64,000 nucleotides of DNA from a bacterium. GTDB lineage: Bacteria > Hydrothermota > Tepidihabitantia > B3-TA06. Below are positions 3,422 through 43,975 of the stretch, piece after piece. The position numbers and the translations under genes were made by a program. Below the pieces are notes generated by a model, which did not search any database, was not told the origin of the DNA, and worked only from the letters and a program-made list of their open reading frames with translations. How positions within the stretch are numbered: the first letter of the stretch is position 1; each line of letters starts with the position of its first letter. The DNA is taken from assembly GCA_012517375.1 (NCBI GenBank), contig JAAYVC010000037.1, positions 3,485-67,484 of the forward strand, read 5' to 3'.

Positions 3422-3442
3422 TGTGGATAACTTTGTGGATAA
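3422..3442 (+). promoter_or_regulatory. Two tandem DnaA boxes (TGTGGATAA x2, reverse complement of TTATCCACA) immediately upstream of dnaA
   Basis: Exact 9-mer TGTGGATAA at 3422-3430 and 3434-3442. Position is 35-55 bp upstream of the dnaA GTG start. Confidence 0.6.
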
Positions 3443-14855: not shown

Positions 14856-16223
14856 TCACACTTTGTCATGTTTCATCTTGGGAAAGAATACTTGCTTTCG
14901 ATCGTCAACCACCGCCGCAACCACCGGGCTCTTCAGGATATCGTCCCAGATGAAGCCGAGCCCGTGCCTGGCGAACCGCTCCCTTATGAGTCTCGCAAAA
15001 CCCTTGAAGTAGATGTCTCTAGGCCTGTTAAGGTAAGCGATAATCGCATTGAGAAGGTATCTCATTTGAGCGGCGGAGATATGCGGATGGTTCCATACGA
15101 GGTGCTTTGCGCTGTAGTGACGGTAGTTTGTGTCCGTTATCCCGTAACGCATCCGGATGTCGTCCCATAAGGGCGTTTTTGGGAAGGGGGTCAGCACGTT
15201 AACCTGATGGGCGTCGAAACCCGCCTTCTTCACAAGCGCCGCGTCCTCCAGCGTCTGCTCTGCGGTCATGCCCTCGTAGCCTATCATATAGTAGACCATG
15301 CGGTACATATCGCCCTTCTCCCTCGTCTTTCGGGAAAACTCCATAATCTCCTCAACCTTCTGCTTCTTGTCTATGCTGTCCAGGGCGCCCTGCTTCATCG
15401 TCTCAAGACCAATAACAGGAAAACGCAGCCCCCGCTCGTACCAGGTTTCAAGATTTCTCAAGTAAATGCCTGCCCGCGATTGCGACCACCAGCGCAGGCC
15501 GTAGCGGGCAAAAAGTTCAGAAAGCTTGTCCGCGTAGGCAGGGAACGTTCCGAAGAGCTCGTCCATAACGAACACGTCCTTTATTCCAACCTTGCGATAG
15601 TGCTTCACGACCCGCTCGACGCTCTCGAAGTTGACTGTAAACCGTCTGTCCTCATATGCAGGCGTCTGGCAGAACGTGCACCTGAAGGGGCAGCCGCGCT
15701 CGGTGTACAAAAGACCCATCATCAGATAAGGAATTGAGCCCGGCTTGAACCTGAAAGGCATCATCAAGGAGGGATGTTCTACCTCCTCGTCCCGTACCCT
15801 GTATCCGAACGCCTGCGCCACCTGATCCTCTGCAGCGCCCGAAAAGACCCTGTCGCAAAATTCGGCAACGTGTCCGTCAAGCGCGCCGTGTCCGCCAGCC
15901 CATATCTCGCGAACCCCGTGCCTGCGAGCCTCATCCGCCATGCGCTCCACCTCGGCTATCTCGTTCTGAAAAAAGGAGAAGCCTACAACGTCCCAGCCCT
16001 CCTTGAGTCTCTCGACATATTCAGGCCACATAGGATACTCGAGTATCTCTATCTCAGGCACGTTCTGCTTCAGGAAGCGCAGCCCGAAGCCTATGCGTCT
16101 TGGATTAGAGATTCGTGGAACCCCGTAAACGTTCTCGCCTATGTAATCGAGATAATCGTCTGCGAAACGCCTGTAGGCGTTGCATAAAAGCACCTTTGGT
16201 GCAGTCTTCAATGCTCCTCTCAC
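14856..16223 (-). CDS. B12-binding-domain radical SAM protein (class B rSAM), paralog 1 of 4
   Basis: 455 aa. N-terminal B12-binding-like domain (~150 aa). rSAM cluster motif ERGCPFRCTFCQTP (CxxxCxxC). ~60% identical to the 17884-19212 paralog. Confidence 0.75.
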   Translation of the reverse strand: MRGALKTAPKVLLCNAYRRFADDYLDYIGENVYGVPRISNPRRIGFGLRFLKQNVPEIEILEYPMWPEYVERLKEGWDVVGFSFFQNEIAEVERMADEARRHGVREIWAGGHGALDGHVAEFCDRVFSGAAEDQVAQAFGYRVRDEEVEHPSLMMPFRFKPGSIPYLMMGLLYTERGCPFRCTFCQTPAYEDRRFTVNFESVERVVKHYRKVGIKDVFVMDELFGTFPAYADKLSELFARYGLRWWSQSRAGIYLRNLETWYERGLRFPVIGLETMKQGALDSIDKKQKVEEIMEFSRKTREKGDMYRMVYYMIGYEGMTAEQTLEDAALVKKAGFDAHQVNVLTPFPKTPLWDDIRMRYGITDTNYRHYSAKHLVWNHPHISAAQMRYLLNAIIAYLNRPRDIYFKGFARLIRERFARHGLGFIWDDILKSPVVAAVVDDRKQVFFPKMKHDKV

Positions 16224-16425
16224 GGTATCAGTCTAAAAATCCTGTATGCTAATCTTCTTCCTGCTCTTTATACATTCTACACCGTGTGCTTGCGCTGTCA
16301 AGACCTTGTTTGAGGTTATTCCTCAAGACTTACGCTGAGGATTGTCCGGGATTTGATCTTATATCATCTTCTTTGCACGTTAGATTGGTAAAAAACCTCG
16401 CCACCGTCTCTCGCACTCTCGTGTT

Positions 16426-17784
16426 TTAAGAACCGAGCCTCTTAAAGAAGATCTGCTTGCGGTCGTCGTACAGGCTGGCTGCAAGAGGTCCCTTGATGAG
16501 GTCGCGCCACACGAACTCGAAGCCTTTTTCGCGCAATCTCTCCCGAACGATCCGGGAGAAGGGTCGTATGTATGCATCGAATGGATTGTTGAGATAATTG
16601 ATGAGCGAAGCGCGCAGATAAAGCATCTGGGAGGGCGTTATCTCGGGATGGTTCCATACGAGGTGGCCGGTATCGAAATCCCTGTAATTATCCTTGATTA
16701 TCCCGTACTTTGAATCAAGCTCCTTCCAGAGAGGGGTCCCGGGAAAGGGAGTGAGTACGCTTACCCCGTGCGCATCGAAGCCCATGCGCTTGAGCTGTAC
16801 TGCGTCCTGGATGGTCTCATCCCGGCTCATGTTCTCGTAGCCTATCATCCAGTCCACTATCCTGTAGATGCCGGGTTTTTCCTTCGTTCTTTCAGCATAT
16901 TCCTCAATCTCCGCGGTCTTCTGGCGCTTCTTGATGATATCCAGAGACTTTTGAACGGTAGACTCGAGGCCTATCATGGGAAAGCGCAACCCCTTCTCGT
17001 ACCACTCGTCGAGATGGTCAAGGATAAGGGATATGCGCGACTGGGCCCACCATCGAAACTTGTATCTCGCGAACATCCCGGTGAGTTTTTCGGAAAGCCG
17101 GGGATTGTACCCGAAGAGTTCGTCCGCGATGAAAAGATCGGTAAGTCCCTTGCTCCGGTAGTGCTTAATGACGCGCTCGATGCTTTCTATATTTATGGGC
17201 AGGGGTCTGGTGTCAAGAGCGGGCGTCTGGCAAAAGCTGCATTCGAAAGGACACCCGTGCTGCGTGTACAGGAGGCCAAGCGTCAACAGAGGTATGTTGC
17301 CGGGTTTTATCGTACCCGGCCAGCACATTACCGGATGCTCTATCGAGTCGTCCGGGATGCGGTATCCGAAAACCCTGGCTACGGCGTCCTCTGAGGCTCC
17401 AGTAAAAACCCTGTCCACTATCCGGGGGATTGCAGGATTCAGCGCTCCGTACCCTCCCGCCCACAGCTCGCGGATTCCATGACTGCGCGCCTCTTCAGCC
17501 ATCCTCGCTATCTCCGCTATCTCGTTCTCGAAAAAAGTGAAGCCCACCACGTCCCAACCCTCCCTGAGTCTCTCGACATATTCAGGCCACATCGGATACT
17601 CGAGTATCTCGACCTCGGGAACGTTCTGCTTTAAGAACCTCAGGCTCATCGAGACCCGGCGGGGCGAGGCAACCCGGGGAAGGCCGAAGACCTGGCCTCC
17701 GATTACATCCCAGTAGTCGTTGCGGAATCGCCTGTAGGCCGTACACAAAAGAACCCGGGGGTTAGCGCTCAAAGCGCCTTTCAC
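16426..17784 (-). CDS. B12-binding-domain radical SAM protein, paralog 2 of 4
   Basis: 452 aa. Motif QHGCPFECSFCQTP. Colinear with the other three paralogs. Confidence 0.75.
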   Translation of the reverse strand: MKGALSANPRVLLCTAYRRFRNDYWDVIGGQVFGLPRVASPRRVSMSLRFLKQNVPEVEILEYPMWPEYVERLREGWDVVGFTFFENEIAEIARMAEEARSHGIRELWAGGYGALNPAIPRIVDRVFTGASEDAVARVFGYRIPDDSIEHPVMCWPGTIKPGNIPLLTLGLLYTQHGCPFECSFCQTPALDTRPLPINIESIERVIKHYRSKGLTDLFIADELFGYNPRLSEKLTGMFARYKFRWWAQSRISLILDHLDEWYEKGLRFPMIGLESTVQKSLDIIKKRQKTAEIEEYAERTKEKPGIYRIVDWMIGYENMSRDETIQDAVQLKRMGFDAHGVSVLTPFPGTPLWKELDSKYGIIKDNYRDFDTGHLVWNHPEITPSQMLYLRASLINYLNNPFDAYIRPFSRIVRERLREKGFEFVWRDLIKGPLAASLYDDRKQIFFKRLGS

Positions 17785-17883
17785 GGCACCGACCTGCTCA
17801 ACGATGCACCCTTCTCAGGCTGACAGAAAAAAGAAATCGAGTTGAATTCCATCCCTTGCTTACGTCTCATAACGACCCGATGC

Positions 17884-19212
17884 TTACTTGCCTTGCTCCA
17901 TGAGATTTCTCACCATGGATTCAAAAGGTGTTCGAATTATATCTCGCCATACGAACCTTAGACCTTCCGCTGTAAACCTCTCCTTTACGAGCCTTGCAAA
18001 ACCCCTTGCGTATATGTCGAAGGGATTGTTGAGATAGGATATTGCGAGCCTTAAGAGATAATGCATCTCGGCTGGACTTATATGAGGGTGGTTCCAGACC
18101 AGATGCTTCGCGTCGTAGTGCCTGTAGAACTTATCTCTTATCCCGTACCTGGATTCGGTCTCGCTCCACAACGGCGTTTGGGGGAACGGCGTTATCACGT
18201 TTACCTGAAAAGCGTCGAACCCGACTGACTTGAGCGCGCGGACGTCGTCCCAAAGCGTCCGGGCGTCCTGGCTCTCGTAGCCTATCATGTAGTAGACCAT
18301 GCGGTACATGGCTTTCTTTTCACTCGTCCTCCGCTCGAACTCGACTATCTCCTCTATCCTCTGTTTCTTGTCGATTGAATCGAGAGAGGACTGCGACATG
18401 GCCTCGACCCCTATCAGAGGGAATCTGAGCCCGCGCTCGTGCCAGGTATCAAGATGCCTCATGAAGAGCGCCGCGCGCGACTGCGCCCACCAGCGGAGCT
18501 TGTATCGGGCCAACAGAAGGGTCAGCCTGTCCGCGAACCCGGGGCTTATCCCGAAGAGCTCGTCGAGCACCAGGACGTCGGTCACACCGGTCCTTGAGTA
18601 CTCGCGTAACACCCTCTCGATGCTGTCTATGTTGACGTTAAACCGGACCTTGTCGTAGGAGGGCGTCTGGCAGAAAGTGCATTTGTACGGGCAGCCGCGC
18701 TCGGTATAGAGAATTCCCATCCTTAGATAAGGGATATTGCCCGGTATGAAATCCATAGGCCATATTATCGACGGATGCAGGACGTCCGTTACCCTTTTAC
18801 CGAAGACCTGTGCGACAGCGTCCTCCGACGCACCGGTGAAGACCCTGTCCACCTCTCGCGGTACCGCCTCGTCCAGCGCTCCGTACCCTCCGGCCCATAT
18901 CTCCTTCACTCCATGCCTGCGGGCCTCGCGAACCATCTCGAAGACCTCCGCAATCTCGTTCTGGAAGAACGAGAAGCCGACTACGTCCCAACCCTCCTTA
19001 AGCTTTTTAACGTAGTCCCGCCATAAGGGGTACTCGAGTATCTCAAGTTCGGGCACGTTGCGCTTAAGGAACCGGAGCGCCGGCGACTGTTTGCGCTTGA
19101 GCGAAACCCTCGGTTTAAGATACACGTTCTCGCCCACATAATCCAGAAAGTCGTCCCTGAATCGCCTGTATGAGGTGCAGATGAGAATCCTCGGGTTGCT
19201 TGAGAGCGCCAT
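17884..19212 (-). CDS. B12-binding-domain radical SAM protein, paralog 3 of 4
   Basis: 442 aa. Motif ERGCPYKCTFCQTP. Confidence 0.75.
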   Translation of the reverse strand: MALSSNPRILICTSYRRFRDDFLDYVGENVYLKPRVSLKRKQSPALRFLKRNVPELEILEYPLWRDYVKKLKEGWDVVGFSFFQNEIAEVFEMVREARRHGVKEIWAGGYGALDEAVPREVDRVFTGASEDAVAQVFGKRVTDVLHPSIIWPMDFIPGNIPYLRMGILYTERGCPYKCTFCQTPSYDKVRFNVNIDSIERVLREYSRTGVTDVLVLDELFGISPGFADRLTLLLARYKLRWWAQSRAALFMRHLDTWHERGLRFPLIGVEAMSQSSLDSIDKKQRIEEIVEFERRTSEKKAMYRMVYYMIGYESQDARTLWDDVRALKSVGFDAFQVNVITPFPQTPLWSETESRYGIRDKFYRHYDAKHLVWNHPHISPAEMHYLLRLAISYLNNPFDIYARGFARLVKERFTAEGLRFVWRDIIRTPFESMVRNLMEQGK

Positions 19213-19215
19213 CCT

Positions 19216-20631
19216 CTAAACCCGTCCATCCAGGAAGACCTGCTTGCGCTCGTCGTATGCGAGGGAATGCAGGAAAGGTCTGGCAATATCGTCCCACAGG
19301 AAACCGAGGCCTTTCTTGTAAATCCTCTTCTGAGCCATTCTTATCACGCCAGCCCCGTAGTTCTTCATCGGTATGTTGAGGGAAGCCATGCCCACACGCT
19401 TGAGAAACTCCATGCTCCCGGCAGAGATGCGAGGGTGGTTCCAGACGAGAAACCGAGCGTCGAACTTGCGGTAGTCCTTCTCGAATATCCCGTAGCGCTC
19501 CTTAATCTCGAACCATTGAGGCGTCTTCGGGTAGGGGGTCAGCACTGTGAGCTGGTGGGCGTCAAAGCCAATCTCCCTAAGAATCTCGTAGTCCGAAAGC
19601 ACGGACTCGACCGTATCCTCCTCATAGCCTATCATGTAGAAAGCCATTGTGAACACCTTTCGCTCCCTGGTGGCGCGCCTGAACTCCCTCATCACATCAA
19701 GACTCGTCCGCTTGCCAATCCGCTTCAATATCTCGTCGTTCACGCTCTCGACCCCGAAACCTACGTTGACCATGCCCCGCTCGGTCCAGGAATCTATGTG
19801 CTTTAAGGTCAAGTCGGCCCTTGACTGCACCCACCAGTGAAACCCGTAGCGGGCAAGCATATCGAGCACCTGTTCCGAATGAGAAGGGAACGTATAAAAG
19901 GTCTCGTCGAGTATAAAAAGCTCATTTATACCGTGGGAGCGGTAGTATCTTAAAACCTCCTCTATCGACTCAAGAGGCAGTCTTGCCGGATGAGGCGAGT
20001 GTACGGGAGTCTGGCAGAACGTGCACCTATAGGGACATCCGCGCTGGGTGAAGAGGAGCCCTATCTTCTTGTAAGGCACGGCTGGGGGCAGGACAACCCT
20101 GACAGGTATAACAACCGGAGGGTGCAGGGTTCTTTCAAGCTTCCTGCCGAAGCATTCCTCAAGAACCTCTGCCTCTACGTACCCGTACCAGATTCTGTCT
20201 GCAAACCCCTCCGCCTCCTCCGATAACCCGCCGTAGCCGCCCGCCCATATCTCCCCGACCCCCTGCCTGCGCGCCTCCTCCACCATCTCCAAAATCTCTG
20301 CCAGATCGTGCTGGAAGAACGAGAAGCCCACGACATCCCACCCTTCCCTGAGCTTTGCCACGTACTCATGCCACAGGGGAAACTCCATAATCTCGAGTTC
20401 AGGCACGTTCTGCTTCATGAACCTGAGAGAGGTTGAAACCGTTCTTATGAAACCGAAGCGCGGGGTGCGGAAAAAGTTAGCGCCAACGGCATCGTAATAA
20501 TCACGGGGGCTGTGCCTGTAGGCGGTTGTCAATAAGATTCTTGGCGAGGAAGTCAAGGGGCGCGGGGAGGGCAAGGAGGGCGAGGAGCTTGGGGGCATTT
20601 CAGCCGAGACTCCCTCTCGCGATGGACTCAA
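19216..20631 (-). CDS. B12-binding-domain radical SAM protein, paralog 4 of 4 (most divergent; Pro/Ser-rich N-terminal extension)
   Basis: 471 aa. Motif QRGCPYRCTFCQTP. N-terminal 35 aa low complexity (PPSSSPSLPSPRPLTSSP), so the true start is uncertain. 3-bp gap to the downstream paralog. Confidence 0.7.
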   Translation of the reverse strand: MSPSREGVSAEMPPSSSPSLPSPRPLTSSPRILLTTAYRHSPRDYYDAVGANFFRTPRFGFIRTVSTSLRFMKQNVPELEIMEFPLWHEYVAKLREGWDVVGFSFFQHDLAEILEMVEEARRQGVGEIWAGGYGGLSEEAEGFADRIWYGYVEAEVLEECFGRKLERTLHPPVVIPVRVVLPPAVPYKKIGLLFTQRGCPYRCTFCQTPVHSPHPARLPLESIEEVLRYYRSHGINELFILDETFYTFPSHSEQVLDMLARYGFHWWVQSRADLTLKHIDSWTERGMVNVGFGVESVNDEILKRIGKRTSLDVMREFRRATRERKVFTMAFYMIGYEEDTVESVLSDYEILREIGFDAHQLTVLTPYPKTPQWFEIKERYGIFEKDYRKFDARFLVWNHPRISAGSMEFLKRVGMASLNIPMKNYGAGVIRMAQKRIYKKGLGFLWDDIARPFLHSLAYDERKQVFLDGRV

Positions 20632-27784: not shown

Positions 27785-28015
27785 AACTTGCGTGTAAAGG
27801 CGGAGGCCAGGGAAGGCCGTGAGAATCGGCCGCGGTGCCGCCACTGTGATCTGGAAACTGCGTTTCCTCCGGGGTTTTCATCGAAAAAACTTCCGGGTAG
27901 ATTGAAACAAGGATGCGTCCTCGTTTCTCAAGTCACTATCTGCAGGAAGCAGATGGGAAGGCTGGAGACGCAACGAGACCAGTAAGCCAGGAGACCTATC
28001 CGCCACTATCCCGCA
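27785..28015 (+). ncRNA. Cobalamin (B12) riboswitch
   Basis: Leader contains the conserved cobalamin-riboswitch core elements GGGAAGGCCGTGAGAATC, GGTGCCGCCACTG and a B12-box-like AAGCCAGGAGACC..GCC. Lies 5' of a TonB-dependent receptor gene. Boundaries approximate. Confidence 0.7.
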
Positions 28016-28078
28016 CCACCCATTCCGGGCCAGGATGGGGGTGTGGTTATCCTAACTCTTACAACTTGGAGGTTTACA

Positions 28079-30067
28079 ATGGTCAAGGCCCTTATCATAT
28101 CATTTCTTTTCGGGCAGGCGCCTCTGGCAGATACATCGACAACTGGAGCCGTAAGGCTGCCGGAGGTCGTCGTGACCGCGACGAGGCTCTCGCTGCCTGC
28201 CAATCTATCGCTATGGCCTGTTGAAGTCATAGAAACAGACGATGAACCCGATCTTGCGGCGGTGCTTGAGGAGAAGAGCCCTGCAACGGACGTACGCTCC
28301 TACGGTCTTACGGGCCAGCCGGCCTACTTCTTTCTCGCAGGAGTTACTTCGACGCGCGTGCTCGTTCTCTCGGACGGCGTTCCTATGAACTCGCGTACAA
28401 ACGGCGTCATCGATCTCGGCATGCTTCCTTTGTCCCCGGGTTCACGGATAGAAATCGTGCGCGGTCCGCTTTCAGCCTTATACGGTTCCACAGCGATAGG
28501 CGGCGTGGTGAACATAATTCCCTCCTACGAAAACGGTATCGCTGCAGGACTCGAACTCGATCAGCATCTGGGTCTTTCCGCCGCTGTTGCGACCTCGAAT
28601 CGGATCAAGAACACCGGTCTCAGGCTTGGTGGTTCCTACCTGACGTCTCCAGGTCTCAGAAGCAACGATTCTACAAAAAGATACAGCGCTCATGCGGGTA
28701 TTGAATTCAACCTCAAAAAAGGCTTCATGCTTGGCGGCGGTTTGGAGATAGTATCACGCGATATGGGCGTGCCCGGTCCTCTGCCCGATGTTTCATCCGG
28801 ACTTCCTAGGTTCGGAGACTCCACCTGCACCTCCCTGTACGACCGGGAACTCGACGATCTCTACTCCTTTAATATCAAAGCAGGCTGGAACCCTGTAGCT
28901 AACTTCTCCTCCTTGCTCAAGCTTTACGGACTTTCTCAGATAACCTTTTTCGACTGGAGATACCTTGACTACTCGATGAACGTCATCAGGGAGATTGACG
29001 ATTATCAAGACGCCAAGCTCGGAGCCGACCTGCTTGTATCGGGAAGACTCAACTGGCTCAATCTTGCAGGAGGGGTTAATCTCGAGCACGAGGCCGTAGG
29101 CGTCCTGACCCTTGCACAGGACAGCGCAACCGGCGATACTGTGTCACGTTCGGCGTGGAACGCCGAAGACCTCCACCTGGGCGCCTGGGCTGAAGGCATT
29201 GCGGAGCTGGGAATGTTTGCGCCGACAATTGCCGTAAGACTCGACTATTCGCCACAGTACAACCTGGCGCTTTCTCCTGAAGCCGGACTTGCTGTAACTA
29301 TCATACCTGAGCGCCTTAAACTCTCCGCCGCTTACGGAAGGGCATTCCGCGCGCCGTCTTTCAACGACCTCTACTGGCCTTATATGGGCGACTCCACTCT
29401 GGAACCCGAGCGAGGCCAGTCCGCATCGCTTTCCGCAGATGCACAACCCCTCGATTTTCTTAAACTTAATGTTTCCGGTTTCTGGAAGGATATAAAGGAT
29501 ATGATCTCGTGGTTGCCCGATTCGCAGGGCATCTGGAAGGCGACGAACGTGGACAGGGTTCAGATCTTTGGAACAGACGCAGATGTTAAACTTAGGATCG
29601 CAGACAGCGTAGTTAACGCATCACTCGGTGCGGCGTACAACTTCGCCGCGGAGACTCGCACCATTGTGGTCTATTCGGACTGGATATCGGGCGAGACCCG
29701 CGATTCCACAGTAACGCGGCAAGCTGCATTTATTCCGCCACTTGTGCTTAAGGCTAACCTGGCGCTTCGACTGTGGAAGGGCGGCAGGATAGCGGCCAAC
29801 GCCGCGTGGACCGCCGGACGCGTCAACTACTACTCCGACTACTCCGCCTCCCCGGTTGTCGGTGTACTCACAAAGCGCATAAATCCGTCGCTTAAACTCA
29901 ACGCATCCATCTCGCAGACGCTTTTCAAGATGCTTACGATAGAGGCTGGCGTGCGCAACATCACCGATGACCGCACGCCAGAGCAGTTCGGTACGGAATA
30001 TACCGACCTCAACTATCCCACGCCTTCACGAAACTTGTACGCCAAGCTGTCCATTCAATATCGATAA
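28079..30067 (+). CDS. btuB: TonB-dependent outer-membrane receptor (BtuB-like cobalamin/corrinoid receptor)
   Basis: Start taken at the ATG at 28079 (SD GGAGG 6 nt upstream; signal MVKALIISFLFGQAPLA). The track GTG at 28043 lies inside the riboswitch. TonB box/plug (VVVTATR; plug domain LSDGVPMNSRTNGVIDLGMLP). Long beta-barrel. Riboswitch context. Confidence 0.8.
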   Translation: MVKALIISFLFGQAPLADTSTTGAVRLPEVVVTATRLSLPANLSLWPVEVIETDDEPDLAAVLEEKSPATDVRSYGLTGQPAYFFLAGVTSTRVLVLSDGVPMNSRTNGVIDLGMLPLSPGSRIEIVRGPLSALYGSTAIGGVVNIIPSYENGIAAGLELDQHLGLSAAVATSNRIKNTGLRLGGSYLTSPGLRSNDSTKRYSAHAGIEFNLKKGFMLGGGLEIVSRDMGVPGPLPDVSSGLPRFGDSTCTSLYDRELDDLYSFNIKAGWNPVANFSSLLKLYGLSQITFFDWRYLDYSMNVIREIDDYQDAKLGADLLVSGRLNWLNLAGGVNLEHEAVGVLTLAQDSATGDTVSRSAWNAEDLHLGAWAEGIAELGMFAPTIAVRLDYSPQYNLALSPEAGLAVTIIPERLKLSAAYGRAFRAPSFNDLYWPYMGDSTLEPERGQSASLSADAQPLDFLKLNVSGFWKDIKDMISWLPDSQGIWKATNVDRVQIFGTDADVKLRIADSVVNASLGAAYNFAAETRTIVVYSDWISGETRDSTVTRQAAFIPPLVLKANLALRLWKGGRIAANAAWTAGRVNYYSDYSASPVVGVLTKRINPSLKLNASISQTLFKMLTIEAGVRNITDDRTPEQFGTEYTDLNYPTPSRNLYAKLSIQYR

Positions 30068-30075
30068 GATTTCCT

Positions 30076-30127
30076 GGGGACCCCGTTAACCCTCGGGGTC
30101 CCCACAAAGCTGCGGAGCAGCTTTGTG
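30076..30127 (+). terminator. Two consecutive perfect hairpins immediately after the btuB-like stop
   Basis: GGGGACCCCG-ttaaccct-CGGGGTCCCC (30076-30103) and CACAAAGCTGC-gga-GCAGCTTTGTG (30103-30127). No strong T-tract. Confidence 0.4.
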
Positions 30128-30129
30128 GG

Positions 30130-30203
30130 GTGACAAAAGCTGGTCAAAAGCTGGTCAAAAGTGGGACAAAAGCTGGTCAGAAGTTGGTCAAAACTTGGAC
30201 AAA
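30130..30203. repeat. 11-bp tandem repeat array, ~7 units, consensus TGGTCAAAAGC
   Basis: tgacaaaagc / tggtcaaaagc / tggtcaaaagt / gggacaaaagc / tggtcagaagt / tggtcaaaact / tggacaaa. Period 11 bp (one helical turn). Non-coding context. Confidence 0.7.
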
Positions 30204-30773
30204 TTTCACCCTCAAAAGAGTCAGGATTAATGGAAGAAGGCCAGATTTCGAGAAGTACGCAAGGAAAATCGAAAATGTCATTGCGAGGTTGTTTCGAGCA
30301 ACCGAAGCAATCGCCCAAATGGAATGCAATCCTTTCGGATGCTCTGCAACCTCAGGATAACATGTTGCATGTTACCCACCATCGCCAGAGGAGAGGGGTC
30401 GGAGAAAGAAAAATGTCTTTGGCTGAACTCGCGCTGTTAGCACTCCCGTTCGGCAGGCAACCAAGGTGACGGGATGAAGCTCCGAAGGGTGAGCGGAGGG
30501 AACCATCTCAAGGCAGTATCTGAAAACATGTGGAATCGACTCATGTGTTTTAAAATAGTGCTAGGAGATTGCCACGACTTCCTTTGGAAGTCTCGCAATG
30601 ACTATGGGGAGAACAAACGTAGGGGCCAGCTTTAACGCCTCTGGCGTTCGCTGCGCGTCAGGTGCTTCGCTCCTCCGCCTGTCATTCTGAGGAGCAACGT
30701 AGTTGCGACGTGAGAATCGCCTTTATGATCTGCCAACACCTTTGGTGTTCGGTGCTCAACGAGTCGACCCGCT

Positions 30774-31529
30774 TCATTCGTCAATAAAGTTCCCTTTAGC
30801 TCCGTATTTTTGGAGCCAAGCTAAGGCGGTTTGAATGAACCGAAGACTGAAATCTTTTTCCAACGCAAGATCAAGGGCGTTTATGTTATGAAAACAGGTG
30901 ACAATTGAGTTGCTTGCACTGAAAGTCATAGAAGTTAGTGTCATGAGCGCCAAATGCAATTTGTCTATATCCAAGAAAGGTTCAGAGTAGATAAGATTAT
31001 TCTTTTGGCCCACAAGCATTCTTAGAATTCCTTTCCATGTGGGGTGGGAGCCTAAAGTGGAAAAATGCCCGTATAAGATTCTTTCATCATCGGCGTTTCC
31101 TTTCGTAACCACATTTTCATACTCTTTCAAAAACTTTCGATTATCGCCTGCTGAAAATTCTTTTCCGTTTTTCCATCTTTGAATTGCTGACGTATCTAAG
31201 GCAAATCTTCTAATAAGCAAAGAACTTTCCTGGATGTCCCTTGTAATCATTAACGAAGCCTGGTAAAAGCCTGATATAATCAACCCAAAAGCGACCGAGA
31301 CATCATTATAAGTTCTTACGATTAATCCCAAAACAACGAGCTCGTCGTCCGTTTTGTGTTTCCGATCAATTCCAATCTTCCAAATCCATTCCACGGATTC
31401 ACTCAGAATCTTCAAGTGGTCTTGGCACTCATCATCCGCGCCAGTAGCCATAAGGATTTGCTCGCGCATCTTTTTCTCGGCTTCCAGCATGTTCGCAAGG
31501 TTTTCCGGCAAGGGCAGCACAATACTCAT
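30774..31529 (-). CDS. Hypothetical protein, paralog 1 of a tandem pair (unknown family)
   Basis: 251 aa. ~30% identity to the 31790-32566 product over full length (VVLGLIVRTYNDVSVAFGLIISGFYQ vs ITLLGLGTSLYNDCATAWLLMMQGFYQ; HPTWKGILRML vs HPTYRGIALML). Low GC. Confidence 0.55.
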   Translation of the reverse strand: MSIVLPLPENLANMLEAEKKMREQILMATGADDECQDHLKILSESVEWIWKIGIDRKHKTDDELVVLGLIVRTYNDVSVAFGLIISGFYQASLMITRDIQESSLLIRRFALDTSAIQRWKNGKEFSAGDNRKFLKEYENVVTKGNADDERILYGHFSTLGSHPTWKGILRMLVGQKNNLIYSEPFLDIDKLHLALMTLTSMTFSASNSIVTCFHNINALDLALEKDFSLRFIQTALAWLQKYGAKGNFIDE

Positions 31530-31532
31530 TTC

Positions 31533-31591
31533 TTCCTCCTCTTTTACGGTTCAGTTATAGTATAATTTAGGTTGCGGATGTCAATCCCCCC
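31533..31591 (-). promoter_or_regulatory. Promoter/5'UTR cassette (copy 1): TTGACA-16-TACTAT plus AGGAGG SD, identical to the cassette at 32572-32630
   Basis: 59 bp identical between the two copies. On the minus strand reads GGGGGGATTGACATCCGCAACCTAAATTATACTATAACTGAACCGTAAAAGAGGAGGAA then ATG. Confidence 0.5.
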
Positions 31592-31659
31592 TCCCCCCTC
31601 TCGCAGGAAGGACCTTCATCCAGTCAGCGTGAGATGGCTCCCTTCGTTCGCCCTGCGGA

Positions 31660-31750
31660 CTCACGTCCTTCCGGTCATACGACCGTCAGTCCTCAGAATG
31701 ACTAAGCAAGCCCCCTCCCTCTCCCTTTCTCCCTCCCCCGGAGGGGGAGG
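31660..31750. repeat. Dispersed ~90-bp intergenic repeat (copy A) with internal CTCCCTCCCCCGG/AGGGGGAGG hairpin
   Basis: Near-identical to 33997-34088 (ctcacgtccttccggtcatacgaccgtcagtcctcagaatgactaagcaagccccctccctctccctttctccctccccc..). A related, rearranged fragment lies at 30612-30718. Confidence 0.7.
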
Positions 31751-31789
31751 ATAGCCAACGTAGGGGCCAACCTTCAGGTCGGCCCGCTT

Positions 31790-32566
31790 TTACAAATCGT
31801 GCCCTTCATTTCTTAAAGCTCCAAATGATGGAAAATCCCTGTAGAGTTTCAACCATTTTGAAAGCCAAGAATTGAATTTTGAATAAGCGATGCCAAAGTC
31901 TTCATTGGCGTTTTTTAGGTTTTCTTCCCCGTATGCCTTAACCAGTTGTTTTGTCGCATACGATGAAATCCGGGCCAGCCAAGTTAAACCATTTTGCAGA
32001 GGTATTTGCTCGACATAAGGACCTAGATGTAAGTTTCCGTGAGGATCACCTAACATCAACGCGATTCCGCGATAAGTGGGGTGTACGTTCATATCACACA
32101 GAAGTGCATGGGTGGCTTCGATAGGATGTTCCTTTATTCTTAAGCGGTCTTTGACTTTTCTTAACGCATCGGAAAGTAGCCCCCTCCTAGTTGAATAGAT
32201 TGCTTTTTTCCAAGCTTGGATCGCAGAACGTTCCATTGAAAAAAACTCAAAAAGAATTGAGCATTCAAGCATATGCCGCTGAGGCATGAAAGACATTTGA
32301 TAAAATCCTTGCATCATTAGAAGCCATGCGGTTGCACAATCGTTGTACAAGCTAGTTCCTAGGCCTAAGAGAGTAATATCGTCTTCGTTGTTATGTTTGT
32401 GGATTGTTGATATAGCTTTTATTAAGAGCATTGAATTTTCGATTGAACTGAAATGATCACCAAATTCTTTAATGTGAGAGTATATCATTTCACGGGAACT
32501 TTGCACTAATGGTACTCCGTTGGTCAATACCCTTTCTAGGATATCGGGAATAGCTGGTTTAAGCAT
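31790..32566 (-). CDS. Hypothetical protein, paralog 2 of the tandem pair
   Basis: 258 aa. Paralogous to 30774-31529. Preceded by the identical promoter cassette. Confidence 0.55.
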   Translation of the reverse strand: MLKPAIPDILERVLTNGVPLVQSSREMIYSHIKEFGDHFSSIENSMLLIKAISTIHKHNNEDDITLLGLGTSLYNDCATAWLLMMQGFYQMSFMPQRHMLECSILFEFFSMERSAIQAWKKAIYSTRRGLLSDALRKVKDRLRIKEHPIEATHALLCDMNVHPTYRGIALMLGDPHGNLHLGPYVEQIPLQNGLTWLARISSYATKQLVKAYGEENLKNANEDFGIAYSKFNSWLSKWLKLYRDFPSFGALRNEGHDL

Positions 32567-32571
32567 GAATT

Positions 32572-32630
32572 TTCCTCCTCTTTTACGGTTCAGTTATAGT
32601 ATAATTTAGGTTGCGGATGTCAATCCCCCC
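32572..32630 (-). promoter_or_regulatory. Promoter/5'UTR cassette (copy 2), identical to 31533-31591
   Basis: 59/59 identity with copy 1. Same -35/-10/SD arrangement. Confidence 0.5.
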
Positions 32631-32805
32631 TTATCAAGGAGGACGCCTGAAGGGCGAGGGGTATTACGGGTCCCCCTTATACTGCGCTCCCTCGATTCCT
32701 CCCACCAGGAGAGGGAGAATTCAATTTCCTCTCAGGAGATAGTCATTGCAGTGACGCATAGATGGGGTCCTCACAGAAATACTCGATATCTTTACGGGGA
32801 TGAAA

Positions 32806-33996: not shown

Positions 33997-34088
33997 CTCA
34001 CGTCCTTCCGGTCATACGACCGTCAGTCCTCAGAATGACTAAGCAAGCCCCCTCCCTCTCCCTTTCTCCCTCCCCCGGGGGGAGGGGA
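33997..34088. repeat. Dispersed ~90-bp intergenic repeat (copy B)
   Basis: Matches 31660-31750 almost base-for-base, including the CCCTCCC..GGGGGAGGGG hairpin. Confidence 0.7.
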
Positions 34089-34129: not shown

Positions 34130-34160
34130 CCCCGTAAAAATACTCCGTGTTTTTACGGGG
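34130..34160 (-). terminator. Hairpin CCCCGTAAAAA-tactccgtg-TTTTTACGGGG overlapping the fusA stop codon
   Basis: 11-bp stem. Followed on the minus strand by CCCGCTTTTCG. Confidence 0.45.
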
Positions 34161-43228: not shown

Positions 43229-43680
43229 TGGACAAAGCCGCCTTAGACCTTGGTTCGGGAACGCTCACTCTCGAAGAGCTGAGAATGATGCTTCGCTCCC
43301 TGCCCCTCAATATCGACTACGTCGATGAGAATGACGCCTTTCGCTACTATTCCAACGGCGACAGGCTATTCAAGCTATCGACAGACGAGCTCGGCAAGAA
43401 CCTTGAGGAGTGTCATTCAGAAAAATCAATGCCAATGGTCAAGGAGATTACAGGCGCGTTCAGGAAAGGAAGAAACGAACCCTACAGGTTCGTTAACTTA
43501 AAAGAAGGCCGCTGGCTGGAAGTGCGGTATATCCCTTTACGTGATGAAAAGGGAGACTATAAAGGAATCCTTGAACTCTCTCAGGATATCACCGAGGCCT
43601 GCAACATCAAGACCCCGTATGTCCCGCCGGAGTTCGGGGAGCTCCTTGAGCAGTCAAGGAGGAACAATGAACACCCGTAA
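43216..43680 (+). CDS. PAS-like domain protein (paralog of the C-terminus of the upstream DUF438 protein)
   Basis: 154 aa. LTLEELRMMLRSLPLNIDYVDENDAFRYYS.. parallels LTLEQIDLMLKNLPVDISFVDEHDELRYYS.. of the preceding gene. 13-bp overlap. Confidence 0.5.
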   Translation: MEGIVDKAALDLGSGTLTLEELRMMLRSLPLNIDYVDENDAFRYYSNGDRLFKLSTDELGKNLEECHSEKSMPMVKEITGAFRKGRNEPYRFVNLKEGRWLEVRYIPLRDEKGDYKGILELSQDITEACNIKTPYVPPEFGELLEQSRRNNEHP

Positions 43681-43975
43681 CACCCGTAACACCCGTAACA
43701 CCCGTAACACCCGCAGCGCCAGCAGCGCCAGCAGCCCCAGCAGCCCCAGCAGCGCCGGTAGCGCCCGTAGCGCCCGCAGGGTTACCATTCCAGCTATAAG
43801 CTGCACCTACTGTTCCAGGCTCATCAAAAGAGAGCTTGAAACCATAGAGGGGGTCAAGGTAGTTGTCGTTAACCTGCCTTTGAGAGAGGTCGTTGTTGAA
43901 TGGCAGCCTCCCGCTACGTGGGAGGCAATTGTGCGAATGCTCAAGGAAATAGAGTATCCGCCGAAGGAGAACTGA
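43667..43975 (+). CDS. HMA-domain (CopZ-like) metallochaperone with N-terminal (NTR)5-(SAS/SPS/SAR)n low-complexity extension; CTYC metal motif
   Basis: Start at the ATG at 43667 (AAGGAGG upstream). The track ORF 43541-43975 extends 5' into the previous gene. HMA fold pattern IPAISCTYCSRLIKRELETIEGVKVVVVNL..VVEWQPPATWEAIVRMLKEIEYPP. Confidence 0.7.
   Translation: MNTRNTRNTRNTRNTRSASSASSPSSPSSAGSARSARRVTIPAISCTYCSRLIKRELETIEGVKVVVVNLPLREVVVEWQPPATWEAIVRMLKEIEYPPKEN
43670..43786 (+). repeat. In-frame 9-bp tandem repeats: (AACACCCGT)4-AACACCCGC followed by AGCGCCAGC/AGCCCCAGC/AGCGCCCGT variants (13 units)
   Basis: Read directly from the sequence. Encodes (NTR)5 SASSAS SPSSPS SAG SARSAR. The first unit overlaps the stop codon of the upstream gene. 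Confidence 0.85.

Follow-up and report, generated by a model that had tools for sequence, protein, structure and literature searches.

The spacer that follows the btuB-like gene consists of intergenic repeat modules, dispersed and specific to WOR-3/Stahlbacteria, that together form a mosaic. Its first part is an element in which very stable hairpins are joined to seven 11-bp units, and we interpret this element as a copy of a lineage-specific, polar and modular intergenic repeat (REP/BIME/BOX-like) with a core that functions as DNA, either as a helically phased curved segment or as a protein-binding platform on one face of the helix. We assign this reading a probability of about 0.55. All positions refer to the 64,000-nucleotide stretch of DNA that was analysed (hereafter, the window).

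Structure of the spacer downstream of btuB

The btuB-like gene (28079..30067, forward strand; Pfam Plug and TonB_dep_Rec_b-barrel) encodes a TonB-dependent receptor, starts at an ATG at 28079 with GGAGG just ahead, and lies downstream of a cobalamin riboswitch (27785..28017, forward strand; Rfam RF00174, 52.2 bits versus a gathering score of 31.5). The repeat mosaic begins directly past its stop codon, which ends at 30067, and the right boundary of the spacer is a convergent low-GC ORF of 251 amino acids (30774..31529, reverse strand). The neighbours identified with Pfam are btuB, two unknown ORFs, a radical-SAM gene and EF-G. The locus is chromosomal, with the riboswitch and btuB on one side and the radical-SAM gene and EF-G on the other, and this synteny from btuB to EF-G around the array is common to relatives. 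A low-GC gene island lies downstream of the array. The nearest named relatives of the EF-G and BtuB of the window are WOR-3, which places the window organism in this phylum. The exact BtuB protein is found on 23 public contigs and the exact 251-aa ORF protein on 10, an independent ENA contig carries the identical sequence, and Logan contigs from both sides enter the array with the same bases; the locus sequence is not an assembly artefact. No Pfam match was obtained for the ORFs that overlap the spacer (30161-30469, 30130-30360 and 30055-30318), and a period of 11 bp does not keep the reading frame; the array does not qualify as protein-coding sequence.

The two perfect hairpins that the first-pass annotation had placed after btuB are present, but their stems are 11 and 14 bp long and they overlap. 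Hairpin 1 (30075..30104, forward strand) has an 11-bp perfect stem with arms at 30075-30085 (TGGGGACCCCG) and 30094-30104 (CGGGGTCCCCA) and a loop of 8 nt. In hairpin 2, 30100-30113 pairs with 30117-30130 (CCCCACAAAGCTGC-GGA-GCAGCTTTGTGGGG), giving 14 bp and a 3-nt loop. This second hairpin forms part of a module that we term H (30095..30130, forward strand), which reads GGGGT followed by CCCC-ACAAAGCTGC-GGA-GCAGCTTTGT-GGGG, has a 14-bp stem and a C-GGA-G triloop in the context GCGGAGC, and belongs to a dispersed hairpin family. Because the two hairpins share 30100-30104, they cannot both form in full: the minimum-energy fold as DNA contains the whole of hairpin 1 and 9 bp of hairpin 2, and that as RNA contains the whole of hairpin 2 (z = -4.1 and -4.3, respectively; 0 of 200 shuffles as good). 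The hairpins are very stable as RNA, the fold of 150 nt having an energy of -61.7 kcal/mol. Since the 3' arm of hairpin 1 (CGGGGTCCCCA) equals the constant 5' part of H, hairpin 1 looks like an inverted duplication of this part. Neither hairpin is followed by a U-tract (CAAAGC and TGACAAAAG follow), and a terminator scan detected no intrinsic terminator at 30068-30210.

The array, or B module (30129..30205, forward strand), consists of seven units with the consensus N-T-G-G-W-C-A-A-A-A-G, which decays 3'-ward. In order, the units are GGTGACAAAAG, CTGGTCAAAAG, CTGGTCAAAAG, TGGGACAAAAG, CTGGTCAGAAG, TTGGTCAAAAC and TTGGACAAATT, spaced by exactly 11 bp, confirming the seven-unit array with one-helical-turn phasing that had been noticed earlier and correcting its span. 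TRF reported a period of 11 with 6.4 copies, and also a period of 33 with a score of 116. The sequence CAAAAGNNGGNCAAAAG was matched 4 times versus 0.01 expected and the two-unit pattern 6 times versus 0.12 expected; the 64-kb window contains no second array and no copy of the A module described below. Neither a promoter scan nor reading of the sequence revealed a promoter on either side of the array, which sits between convergent genes. The predicted bend of the array is 77 degrees for relaxed DNA and ~140 degrees at 11 bp per turn. Compared with 659 segments of the window, it comes first when the twist is set to 11.0 bp per turn and within the top 0.3-0.8% when the DNA is relaxed, so that the curvature prediction suggested by the first-pass annotation places the array among the most curved DNA of the window. 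The array is unstructured (single-stranded) in the predicted folds. Rfam 15, run over the window at the gathering score, yielded only a tRNA and the cobalamin riboswitch, and a scan of 29900-31000 at E<=10 gave nothing relevant (best score 22.6 bits versus a threshold of 50).

The remainder of the spacer contains other modules. A GTCATTGCGAG-hairpin-CGAAGCAATC module (30277..30312, forward strand) represents a separate dispersed hairpin family, with 85-87% matches in two WOR-3 loci (L025 and L092). A composite repeat, CCGAAGG..GGAACCATCTCA ... GGAGATTGCCACG-hairpin-CTCGCAATGAC (30480..30602, forward strand), has blastn matches in five loci (L035, L090, L114, L048 and L011); its CCGAAGG and ATCT blocks are invariant in the alignment (A1), and its right end is an inverted copy of the module at 30277, with the inverted GTCATTGCGAG at 30592-30602. 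Two segments, 30275-30330 and 30450-30665, match dispersed repeats of WOR-3 loci. Further downstream are a GTAG-headed REP-like remnant (GTAGGGGCCAGC...; 30619..30665, forward strand), of which a better copy is present at 31760-31785, and a GTCATTCTGAGGA...GACGTGAGAATC module (30681..30718, forward strand), which is the inverse of part of a 92-nt repeat at 31660-31751 and 33997-34088; positions 30681-30693 are a perfect 13-nt inverse of 31690-31702 and 34027-34039. In addition, 30608-30633 is 81% identical to 31749-31774. GTAG-headed REP-like elements, separate from H and located at 30619 and 31760 in the window, also occur in related loci, and REPIN-like GTAGGGGCCGG...CCGGCCCCTAC doublets are present in WOR-3 loci. 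The repeat-family fragments reported earlier for this spacer are therefore real, though short within the window. Self-similarity within the window is only weak, and the family is thus invisible from the window alone.

A dispersed repeat family in WOR-3/Stahlbacteria

A three-unit pattern, for which ~0.07 chance matches were estimated in 596 Gb, matched 114 stretches. The search for other arrays that had been proposed in the first-pass annotation thereby placed 79 of these stretches in eight WOR-3/Stahlbacteria MAGs (19, 15, 14, 10, 9, 8, 3 and 1 per MAG), whereas other taxa and phages contained single, perfect arrays only. The family comprises 93 arrays of 3-7 units each from at least nine species, all with an exact period of 11.0 bp, and its members are always intergenic. 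The arrays are always co-oriented with hairpin H or with a second module, A (GTCAGGTTT...CGTCRC-AAAAAAG). The order is A or H, followed by 3-7 B units and then by G, C or H modules, and chains such as A-H-B-H-A occur; H is joined to B through an A-run. The composite is polar, with A or H at one end and various modules at the other, and neither terminal inverted repeats nor target-site duplications were evident in the loci inspected. A HepT/MNT toxin-antitoxin pair lies between two direct repeats of 165 nt that include arrays.

The H modules follow the pattern GGGGT-CCCC-variable stem-C-GNA-G-stem-GGGG, in which a constant clamp is combined with a hypervariable, complementary inner stem. We found 55 copies in 0.55 Mb of WOR-3 loci plus the window. 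The loop is G-N-A in 45 of these, and the closing pair is C:G in 38 of the 40 distinct hairpins. The stem shows covariation, with 111 double-sided changes versus 37 in shuffles (0 of 500 shuffles reached 111). A G:T at stem position 5:27 is conserved in 34 of the 40 hairpins; it would be a normal G:U pair in RNA, which makes an RNA role for H possible. No description of the unit sequence or of the Stahlbacteria repeats was found in Rfam or in the literature searched, and a composite of a very stable hairpin and an 11-bp tandem array has apparently not been described before.

These modules interrupt assemblies. The short-read contigs of the window species and of three related species break within modules; on the left side of the locus, 9 of 9 Logan contigs end within the hairpins or the array, and on the right side they start within the array or at other modules, which points to several copies of the modules in the community of the window species. 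A scan of metagenomes for the window-specific junction returned 0 matches.

Conservation and turnover of the repeats

Within the unit, conservation reaches 90% or more at positions 2-4 and 6-11; position 1 is unconstrained, and A and T are about equally frequent at position 5. A comparison of orthologous arrays (63 matched units) showed the same contrast: positions 6-10 (CAAAA) differ at 1 of 315 sites, position 1 in 33 units and position 5 in 18. The CAAAA core is therefore near-invariant while the flanking DNA diverges by 3-17%. The orthologous arrays also differ by 13 indels of whole units. Two adjacent units resemble each other no more than random pairs do (16% versus 12%), indicating that the arrays are not fresh products of slippage. 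Modules, hairpin stems and unit number turn over fast at orthologous spacers whose flanks are 93-97% identical.

The site downstream of btuB carries a member of the family in six further species (48-63% BtuB identity) besides the window species. In the nearest of them (BtuB 63% identical), an A module and an array are found, and both flanking contigs end in array sequence; this species apparently has an array at the same place as the window. Species at 58% and 49% BtuB identity have A modules there, and those at 48-49% have H modules without the array. Absence or variability of the array among close relatives had been named in the first-pass annotation as an outcome that would refute its reading, and the outcome is divided: the array is identical wherever it is assembled in the same species and apparently persists in the nearest one, but more distant relatives have the hairpin module only. 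No copy-number polymorphism was seen in the window species where contigs reach the array, which short-read contigs rarely span. A canonical terminator separates btuB from the A-B element of the nearest relative, which places the element outside the btuB transcript.

Genes and promoters around the repeats

The family members show no consistent orientation with respect to the genes beside them, which in related loci are crude ORF calls. Orientation also showed no link to local GC or AT skew (30 versus 39), a weak test made on 8-kb pieces. The placement of promoters around the arrays is strongly asymmetric. Among 89 arrays, near-consensus sigma70 promoters (at least 10 of 12 consensus positions matched) read away from the array on its 5' side in 30 cases and toward it in 0, compared with 5 and 0, respectively, on the 3' side. 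When the 5' neighbour is divergent, such a promoter is present in 35 of 52 cases. The array-linked promoters include those of tRNA-Ala (locus L022) and tRNA-Met genes, as well as TTGACT-17-TAGAAT at locus L085, and the strand bearing the T-tracts always lies in the direction of transcription. Conversely, 30 of 82 arrays, about a third, have a co-oriented gene on the 5' side and come straight after its stop codon; for the window copy and those of the three nearest relatives, the gene on this side is btuB, with its 3' end toward the element. In the family, the composite abuts at its 5' end a stop codon or else the -35 box of an outward-reading promoter, which often places the arrays in the upstream-activating or boundary zone of promoters.

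The promoter spacers are unrelated between loci, and therefore the promoters are not part of the repeat. The distance to the -35 box varies from 0 to 28 nt for A, and array distances take all values modulo 11, which argues against a rigid activator or curvature geometry. No enrichment of strong promoters was found next to arrays (61% versus a 50% baseline, for genes preceded by 100 nt or more of spacer). Two further candidates were rejected. Module A as a promoter showed no consistent -35/-10 pair by eye, except in one variant (TCGTCA-18-CATAAT), and H as a terminator or mRNA stabiliser showed no orientation preference with respect to gene 3' ends, its loop strand being sense in 18 cases and antisense in 18.

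Comparison with known repeats

The family resembles the REP, BIME and REPIN elements of Proteobacteria, which are short, imperfect intergenic palindromes (about 20-40 nt) in many copies that form mosaics with other motifs and often lie at gene ends or between convergent genes. E. coli REP elements contain gyrase and IHF sites, and RAYT (HUH) transposases, which act on the hairpins in single-stranded form, mobilise them. H is likewise a dispersed intergenic palindrome of many copies, chained with A, B and other modules. However, its head is GGGGT instead of a conserved 5' GTAG, its inner stem is hypervariable instead of conserved while the C-GNA-G triloop is fixed, and it is coupled to an 11-bp tandem array that REP and BIME elements lack. 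The BOX elements of Streptococcus pneumoniae (boxA-boxB(n)-boxC) are also modular, polar, dispersed and intergenic, with a variable tandem middle module, and the A-B(n)-C architecture found here is of this type. The likeness is one of analogy only, without sequence homology (no Rfam match); the boxB unit is ~45 bp long and not helically phased, the phylum is different, and BOX elements probably function as structured RNA.

Direct repeats spaced by 11 bp are known from ParR-parC of plasmid R1 and from PhoB/OmpR-type pho boxes. Their repeats combine a conserved 6-7-bp part with an A/T-rich part, and the cognate proteins occupy them cooperatively along one face of the curved DNA, with one protomer or dimer per turn. 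In contrast to these single loci beside their genes, the WOR-3 family occupies tens of loci per genome, in both gene contexts and within a composite repeat. Helix-phased A-tracts confer intrinsic curvature and make DNA responsive to supercoiling, and they are frequent upstream of bacterial promoters (PMC9825172). The bacterial cases, however, are diffuse statistical signals or contain few A-tracts, and lack an exact 11-mer with a conserved non-A part. In C. elegans, Helitron PATC minisatellites of 10-bp period, derived from selfish elements, are sequence-encoded insulators (bioRxiv 10.64898/2026.08.08.743475), but in eukaryotic chromatin.

The C-GAA-G and C-GGA-G triloops of H are identical to the exceptionally stable d(GCGNAGC) motif of the mini-hairpins in phage single-strand origins and N4 virion RNA polymerase promoters, and the N4 promoter sequence quoted in a review (PMC13037366) is the GCGGAGC of the window. 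GCGNAGC DNA mini-hairpins melt at 70-76 C, whereas the RNA mini-hairpin r(GCGAAAGC) melts at 39 C, far below its DNA counterpart (PMC13037366). Those mini-hairpins have stems of 2-7 bp at unique functional sites, in contrast to the dispersed 12-14-bp stems of H.

Possible functions

If the core acts at the DNA level, the seven A4-tracts of the window array, one per turn, would form an intrinsically curved segment that presents a repeated sequence on one face of the helix. A protein could wrap or coat this segment, with one protomer bound at each turn; a nucleoid-associated, winged-helix-type or gyrase-like protein is a putative candidate. The earlier proposal of a binding-site array for a regulator stays alive in this form, as a putative genome-wide architectural element and not as a local operator. 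Because the unit equals one helical turn, gain, loss or exchange of whole units leaves the rotational setting of the flanks unchanged, and whole-unit change is the observed mode of array evolution. H would be a REP-like hairpin whose features fit single-stranded DNA better than RNA, and it is probably a handle for copying or recombining the composite between loci. The window copy may mark off a variable gene island as a structural or topological boundary at its edge, or may be a neutral passenger.

The strongest competitor is a purely selfish or neutral REPIN/MITE-like repeat that spreads and recombines in intergenic DNA, with no host function and an incidental 11-bp period. The fast turnover of modules, stems and unit number between species with 93-97% identical flanks is as expected for selfish DNA, and the absence of a fixed orientation to genes or GC skew, the canonical GTAG-headed REPIN-like doublets in the same spacers, the array-containing repeats around the toxin-antitoxin pair and the functionless position of the window copy between convergent genes all agree with it. 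Moreover, conservation of the core could reflect concerted evolution or copying from master copies and not selection for binding. We nevertheless consider this reading on balance unlikely, because CAAAA has stayed near-invariant beside diverging flanks, the exact period is kept in all 93 arrays, promoter polarity is so asymmetric (30, 0, 5 and 0), the site after btuB is occupied in six further species, and no terminal inverted repeats or target-site duplications were evident in the loci inspected. The promoter data would also suit an upstream activating element, in which phased T-tracts form UP/UAS-like curved DNA that boosts or tunes adjacent sigma70 promoters and the window copy is a relic that lost its promoter. 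Phased A-tracts of this kind have a precedent upstream of bacterial promoters (PMC9825172), the predicted curvature is strong, and the outward promoters, those of tRNA genes included, have the T-tract strand along transcription. Yet the helical phase between array and -35 box is not conserved, promoters of equal quality occur without arrays ahead of half of the genes in these loci whose upstream spacer is 100 nt or longer, a stop codon immediately precedes about one array in three (30/82), and the window copy, which has no promoter at all, has its 5' side toward the btuB 3' end, as in the three nearest relatives; we therefore regard this role as rather improbable.

Less probable still is an element acting in RNA, with the array as a 3' UTR or small RNA whose UGGWCAAAAG motifs titrate an RNA-binding protein and hairpins that stabilise or terminate the transcript. 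The element begins only 8 nt past the btuB stop, its hairpins are very stable as RNA, the H stem keeps a G:U-compatible pair, and the array is single-stranded in the predicted folds. However, the U-tract and terminator expected downstream of the hairpins are missing, the terminator of the nearest relative precedes the A-B element, and the GNA triloop is a stability motif of DNA, not of RNA. GGA is the core CsrA-binding motif, and half of the units have GGU (GGT in the DNA) instead, for which reason a CsrA-type sponge was rejected. The small structured RNA that the first-pass annotation had considered for the array is not supported, given its predicted lack of structure, the absence of an Rfam match even at E<=10 and the occurrence of family members in either orientation to flanking genes. 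The same annotation had considered iterons or a partition site, and the centromere (ParR/parC-like) or iterons of an integrated plasmid or phage would explain direct repeats at one per helical turn, as in R1 parC, the perfect related arrays of phage contigs, such as (GGGGACAAAAG)n and (GCGGTCAAAAG)n, and the low-GC gene island that follows. This origin is largely refuted and extremely improbable: the array lies within the chromosomal btuB to EF-G synteny shared with relatives, no rep, par or integrase gene is adjacent, the 79 loci in eight MAGs do not correspond to one per replicon, and the units are degenerate at two positions instead of identical.

Implications

The modules break short-read WOR-3 assemblies, every Logan contig examined ending in one, and they mark spacers with differing gene content among relatives; knowledge of them will therefore aid binning, scaffolding and annotation in an uncultured phylum. 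The family unites a unit of one helical turn with a near-invariant A-tract core, free turnover of whole units and a hairpin signature of the single-stranded DNA type. It thus offers a clean natural setting in which to ask if repeats dispersed through bacterial genomes can work via DNA shape (curvature, wrapping or supercoil trapping) as opposed to RNA or a local operator, and the fixed polarity toward promoters makes this question testable by simple reporter and binding assays. A bolder and doubtful extension is that a DNA-organising protein specific to WOR-3, or else gyrase or RNA polymerase itself, lands on the arrays throughout the genome, and that the arrays serve as sequence-encoded curved boundaries insulating promoters and convergent gene ends, with the GNA-loop hairpins, recognised as single-stranded DNA, moving these landing sites. 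If this were true, the family would be the bacterial equivalent of the insulators that selfish elements have given rise to.

The intergenic spacer downstream of btuB

The non-coding spacer at 30068-30773 agrees in sequence with its first-pass annotation, and the hairpins and seven 11-bp units reported there are present. It follows btuB (28079-30067, plus strand; Plug and beta-barrel; stop codon TAA at 30065-30067), which has a cobalamin riboswitch upstream (27785-28017), and its right boundary is a convergent low-G+C ORF of 251 aa. Hairpin 1, which begins eight bases past the btuB stop codon, has an 11-bp stem (30075-30085 paired with 30094-30104), and hairpin 2 has a 14-bp stem (30100-30113 paired with 30117-30130) and a GGA loop. 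Because bases 30100-30104 are common to both, the two hairpins compete; hairpin 1 is intact in the best predicted DNA fold and hairpin 2 in the best predicted RNA fold. Both folds of the hairpin region surpass those of shuffled sequences widely (z about -4.1 for DNA and -4.3 for RNA). The array (30129-30205) consists of seven units at a spacing of exactly 11 bp (TRF score 116), and the unit pattern gave 4-6 matches there, versus 0.01-0.12 expected, and none elsewhere in the 64 kb. No ORF with protein-family support was found in the spacer, and no Rfam model matched it.

The spacer also contains a GTCATTGCGAG-hairpin-GAAGCAATC module (30277-30312), a composite repeat (30480-30602) at whose end that module recurs in inverted orientation, a degenerate REP-like unit headed by GTAG (30619-30665) and a GTCATTCTGAGGA module (30681-30718) inverse to a 92-nt repeat at 31660 and 33997. 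This direct repeat (31660-31751 and 33997-34088; 97% identical) holds a GTCATTCTGAGGA-type module and C-rich runs, and its copies flank a low-GC island and a radical-SAM gene. H-like hairpins (CCCCGTAAAAA...TTTTTACGGGG; 34130-34160 and 32766-32799) lie at the stop codons of EF-G and the radical-SAM/SPASM gene, that of EF-G with a C-GGA-G loop on the sense strand of the gene. The island itself (30774-32631) comprises two minus-strand ORFs of 251 and 258 aa (about 40% GC, no assigned function), each preceded by the same 60 nt (31533-31592 = 32572-31631), which include a TTGACA-16-TACTAT promoter. In relatives (L157, L160 and L162), one unrelated plus-strand gene of 357-359 aa lies at this place, and the region thus looks like a variable island between repeat mosaics. 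Elsewhere in the window, 15083-20423 contains four gene-sized, paralogous repeats in tandem (period about 1.35-1.56 kb, segments 60-83% identical, direct-repeat families D1-D5).

Dispersal of the repeat in WOR-3

The exact BtuB protein was found on 23 contigs. One ENA contig spans the spacer region and is identical in sequence to the window, and all nine of the listed Logan contigs with BtuB end 36-105 bp past the stop codon, within the hairpins or array. Contigs found via the convergent ORF begin within the array or elsewhere in the spacer and are identical to the window wherever they cover the array. The breaks in the hairpins and array indicate that k-mers of these elements are shared with other places; breaks also fall at the other spacer modules.

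When 185,579 species genomes were scanned for a run of three units (22 specified bases; about 0.07 chance matches estimated), 114 stretches matched, 79 of which lie in eight MAGs of WOR-3/'Ca. Stahlbacteria' (19, 15, 14, 10, 9, 8, 3 and 1 loci per MAG). In the remaining 35, as well as in 15 viral contigs, there is a single array whose units do not differ from one another (GGGGACAAAAG and GCGGTCAAAAG, for example); these are ordinary iteron/VNTR-like arrays. On phage contigs (L135, L138, L142, L145; L136/L137; L144/L146), perfect 11-bp arrays, namely (GGGGACAAAAG)n, (GCGGTCAAAAG)n with up to 11 or more copies and (TCGGTCAAAAG)n, have the same CAAAAG core and conserved flanks, and are probably iteron- or pac-type protein-binding arrays. 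The nearest named relatives of the window's EF-G paralog (72-73% identity) and BtuB (about 50%) are WOR-3 proteins, and the window organism belongs to WOR-3.

Array units and module architecture

The WOR-3 loci and the window together contain 93 arrays of 3-7 units. The family unit is N-T-G-G-W-C-A-A-A-A-G, in which position 1 is unconstrained, A and T are equally frequent at position 5 and all others are at least 90% conserved. Eight of the conserved positions belonged to the search criterion; position 2 did not and is 90% T. At the variable positions, 16% of neighbouring units agree, versus 12% of random pairs, and the arrays are therefore not products of recent slippage. They are polar, with a first unit that is mostly CTGGW and a last unit of (A/G/T)TGGACAAAA. 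An A-run (AAAAAAG) links the array (module B) to a preceding module, either A or H. Module A (cGTCAGGTTT-N10-CGTCRC) is built from a 20-bp unit present about 1.5 times and includes a small palindrome that covaries. Further modules follow 3' of the arrays, one of which, as read by eye, is (TGGGGnATTTT)n, also with an 11-bp period. The hairpin module H and the array are co-oriented in all cases, and chains such as A-H-B-H-A exist.

In several WOR-3 loci, including L085, L087 and L093, canonical REPIN-like doublets (GTAGGGGCCGG..CCGGCCC ... GGGCCG..CGGCCCCTAC) share spacers with arrays. Translations read by eye place a HepT (DUF86-like)/MNT nucleotidyltransferase toxin-antitoxin pair at L048 (SOJW01000059.1; 1-1348 of the locus), flanked by 165-nt direct repeats that are 99% identical, each with a five-unit array; these repeats may mediate cassette gain.

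The hairpin module

The 55 copies of H have in common GGGT-CCCC ... GGGG and stems of 12-14 bp, and 45 have a G-N-A loop (GAA in 35, GCA in 5, GTA in 4 and GGA in 1, the window copy). Among the 40 distinct 31-mers, 93% of cells pair, and 111 double-sided changes were counted versus 37 in shuffles (0 of 500 shuffles as high). Of the 40, 38 have a C:G closing pair. C-GNA-G is a DNA mini-hairpin motif of extraordinary stability: GCGNAGC has a melting temperature of 70-76 C, and the RNA mini-hairpin r(GCGAAAGC) used for comparison melts far lower than its DNA counterpart, at 39 C (PMC13037366; PMC3201870). Position 5:27 is G:T in 34 of the 40, which would be a normal wobble pair in RNA and is a point in favour of an RNA element. 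However, the loop strand is sense to the nearest gene 3' end in 18 copies and antisense in 18 (19 have no gene end nearby), and this absence of a preferred orientation fits a single-stranded-DNA hairpin better than an mRNA element. H may be likened to REP, attC and IS200-type ends, hairpins that matter as single-stranded DNA.

Predicted curvature of the array

Curvature was predicted with a wedge-model script using Bolshoy-Trifonov and AA-wedge parameters. For the 97-bp array segment, the net bend predicted at relaxed twist is 77 degrees, versus 25-29 for shuffles and other window segments, a rank within the top 0.3-0.8% of the 659 segments evaluated. With the helical repeat set to 11.0 bp per turn, as expected of underwound DNA, the predicted bend rises to about 140 degrees and exceeds that of every other segment. 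With one unit equal to one turn, gain or loss of units would leave the rotational register of the flanks unchanged.

Position relative to genes and promoters

By crude ORF calls, the arrays are always intergenic, with a modest bias to antisense relative to neighbouring genes; about one-third directly follow a stop codon. The asymmetry is sharper for promoters. Counting sigma70-type sites within 160 nt that match 10 or more of the 12 consensus positions, we found promoters reading away from the 5' (A/H) side at 30 of 89 arrays and toward it at none; on the 3' side, five read away and none toward. With a divergent 5' neighbour gene, the promoter fraction is 35/52. Some of these promoters belong to tRNA-Ala and tRNA-Met genes. 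The promoters are not part of the repeat, since their spacers show no relationship from one locus to another. However, the distance between repeat and -35 box is not phased, and equally good promoters precede about half of the genes whose spacer measures 100 nt or more, so that promoter prediction seems unusually reliable in WOR-3. We conclude that the 5' end of the composite is defined and abuts a -35 box or a stop codon, and that its 3' side continues into more repeats. The window copy has no promoter and belongs to the class located after a stop codon and between convergent genes.

Other short repeats were seen in the window. Two 9-bp tandem repeats at 43670-43779 (AACACCCGT x5, then GCAGCGCCA x7) appear coding: downstream of a GGAGG motif and an ATG, they would give a plus-strand ORF the N-terminal sequence (Asn-Thr-Arg)n(Ser-Ala-Ser)n. 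In the WOR-3 loci L084, L093 and L115, -35 boxes are preceded by similar GTAACACCC repeats. Two perfect DnaA-box nonamers (TTATCCACA, minus strand; TRF unit TGTGGATAACTT) lie 12 bp apart at 3422-3442, and the same box adjoins arrays in WOR-3 loci L032 and L122.

Evolution and persistence

Orthologous spacers compared between MAGs (flanks 83-97% identical) differ in module content and array unit number, and their hairpin stems differ completely. Across the 63 units matched between 15 pairs of orthologous arrays, position 1 is mismatched in 33 units and position 5 in 18, positions 6-10 show one change in 315 positions, and there are 13 whole-unit indels. The units are thus exchanged and shuffled fast, while the A-tract core is fixed, which could reflect selection, homogenisation or both.

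The family is positionally persistent 3' of btuB. In the nearest species (BtuB 63% and EF-G 83% identical), the btuB contig terminates in terminator-A-array, and the contig that bears EF-G and the radical-SAM gene breaks off within the 3' portion of an array. Species with 58% and 49% BtuB identity have A modules 3' of btuB, and species with complete assemblies and 48-49% identity have one or two H modules there without an array; beyond these modules lie a canonical terminator, a promoter and a gene of 357 aa absent from the window.

Interpretation

The window element represents a single copy of an intergenic repeat that is lineage-specific, polar and modular, and the earlier proposal of iterons or partition sites was not borne out. 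As the preferred mechanism, we infer that module B would act as a curved DNA-level platform for protein binding on one face, joined to H as a REP-like single-stranded-DNA hairpin. The main rival is a purely selfish repeat. No description of this family was found in Rfam or the searchable literature; it is an addition to the dispersed intergenic repeats already known in bacteria.
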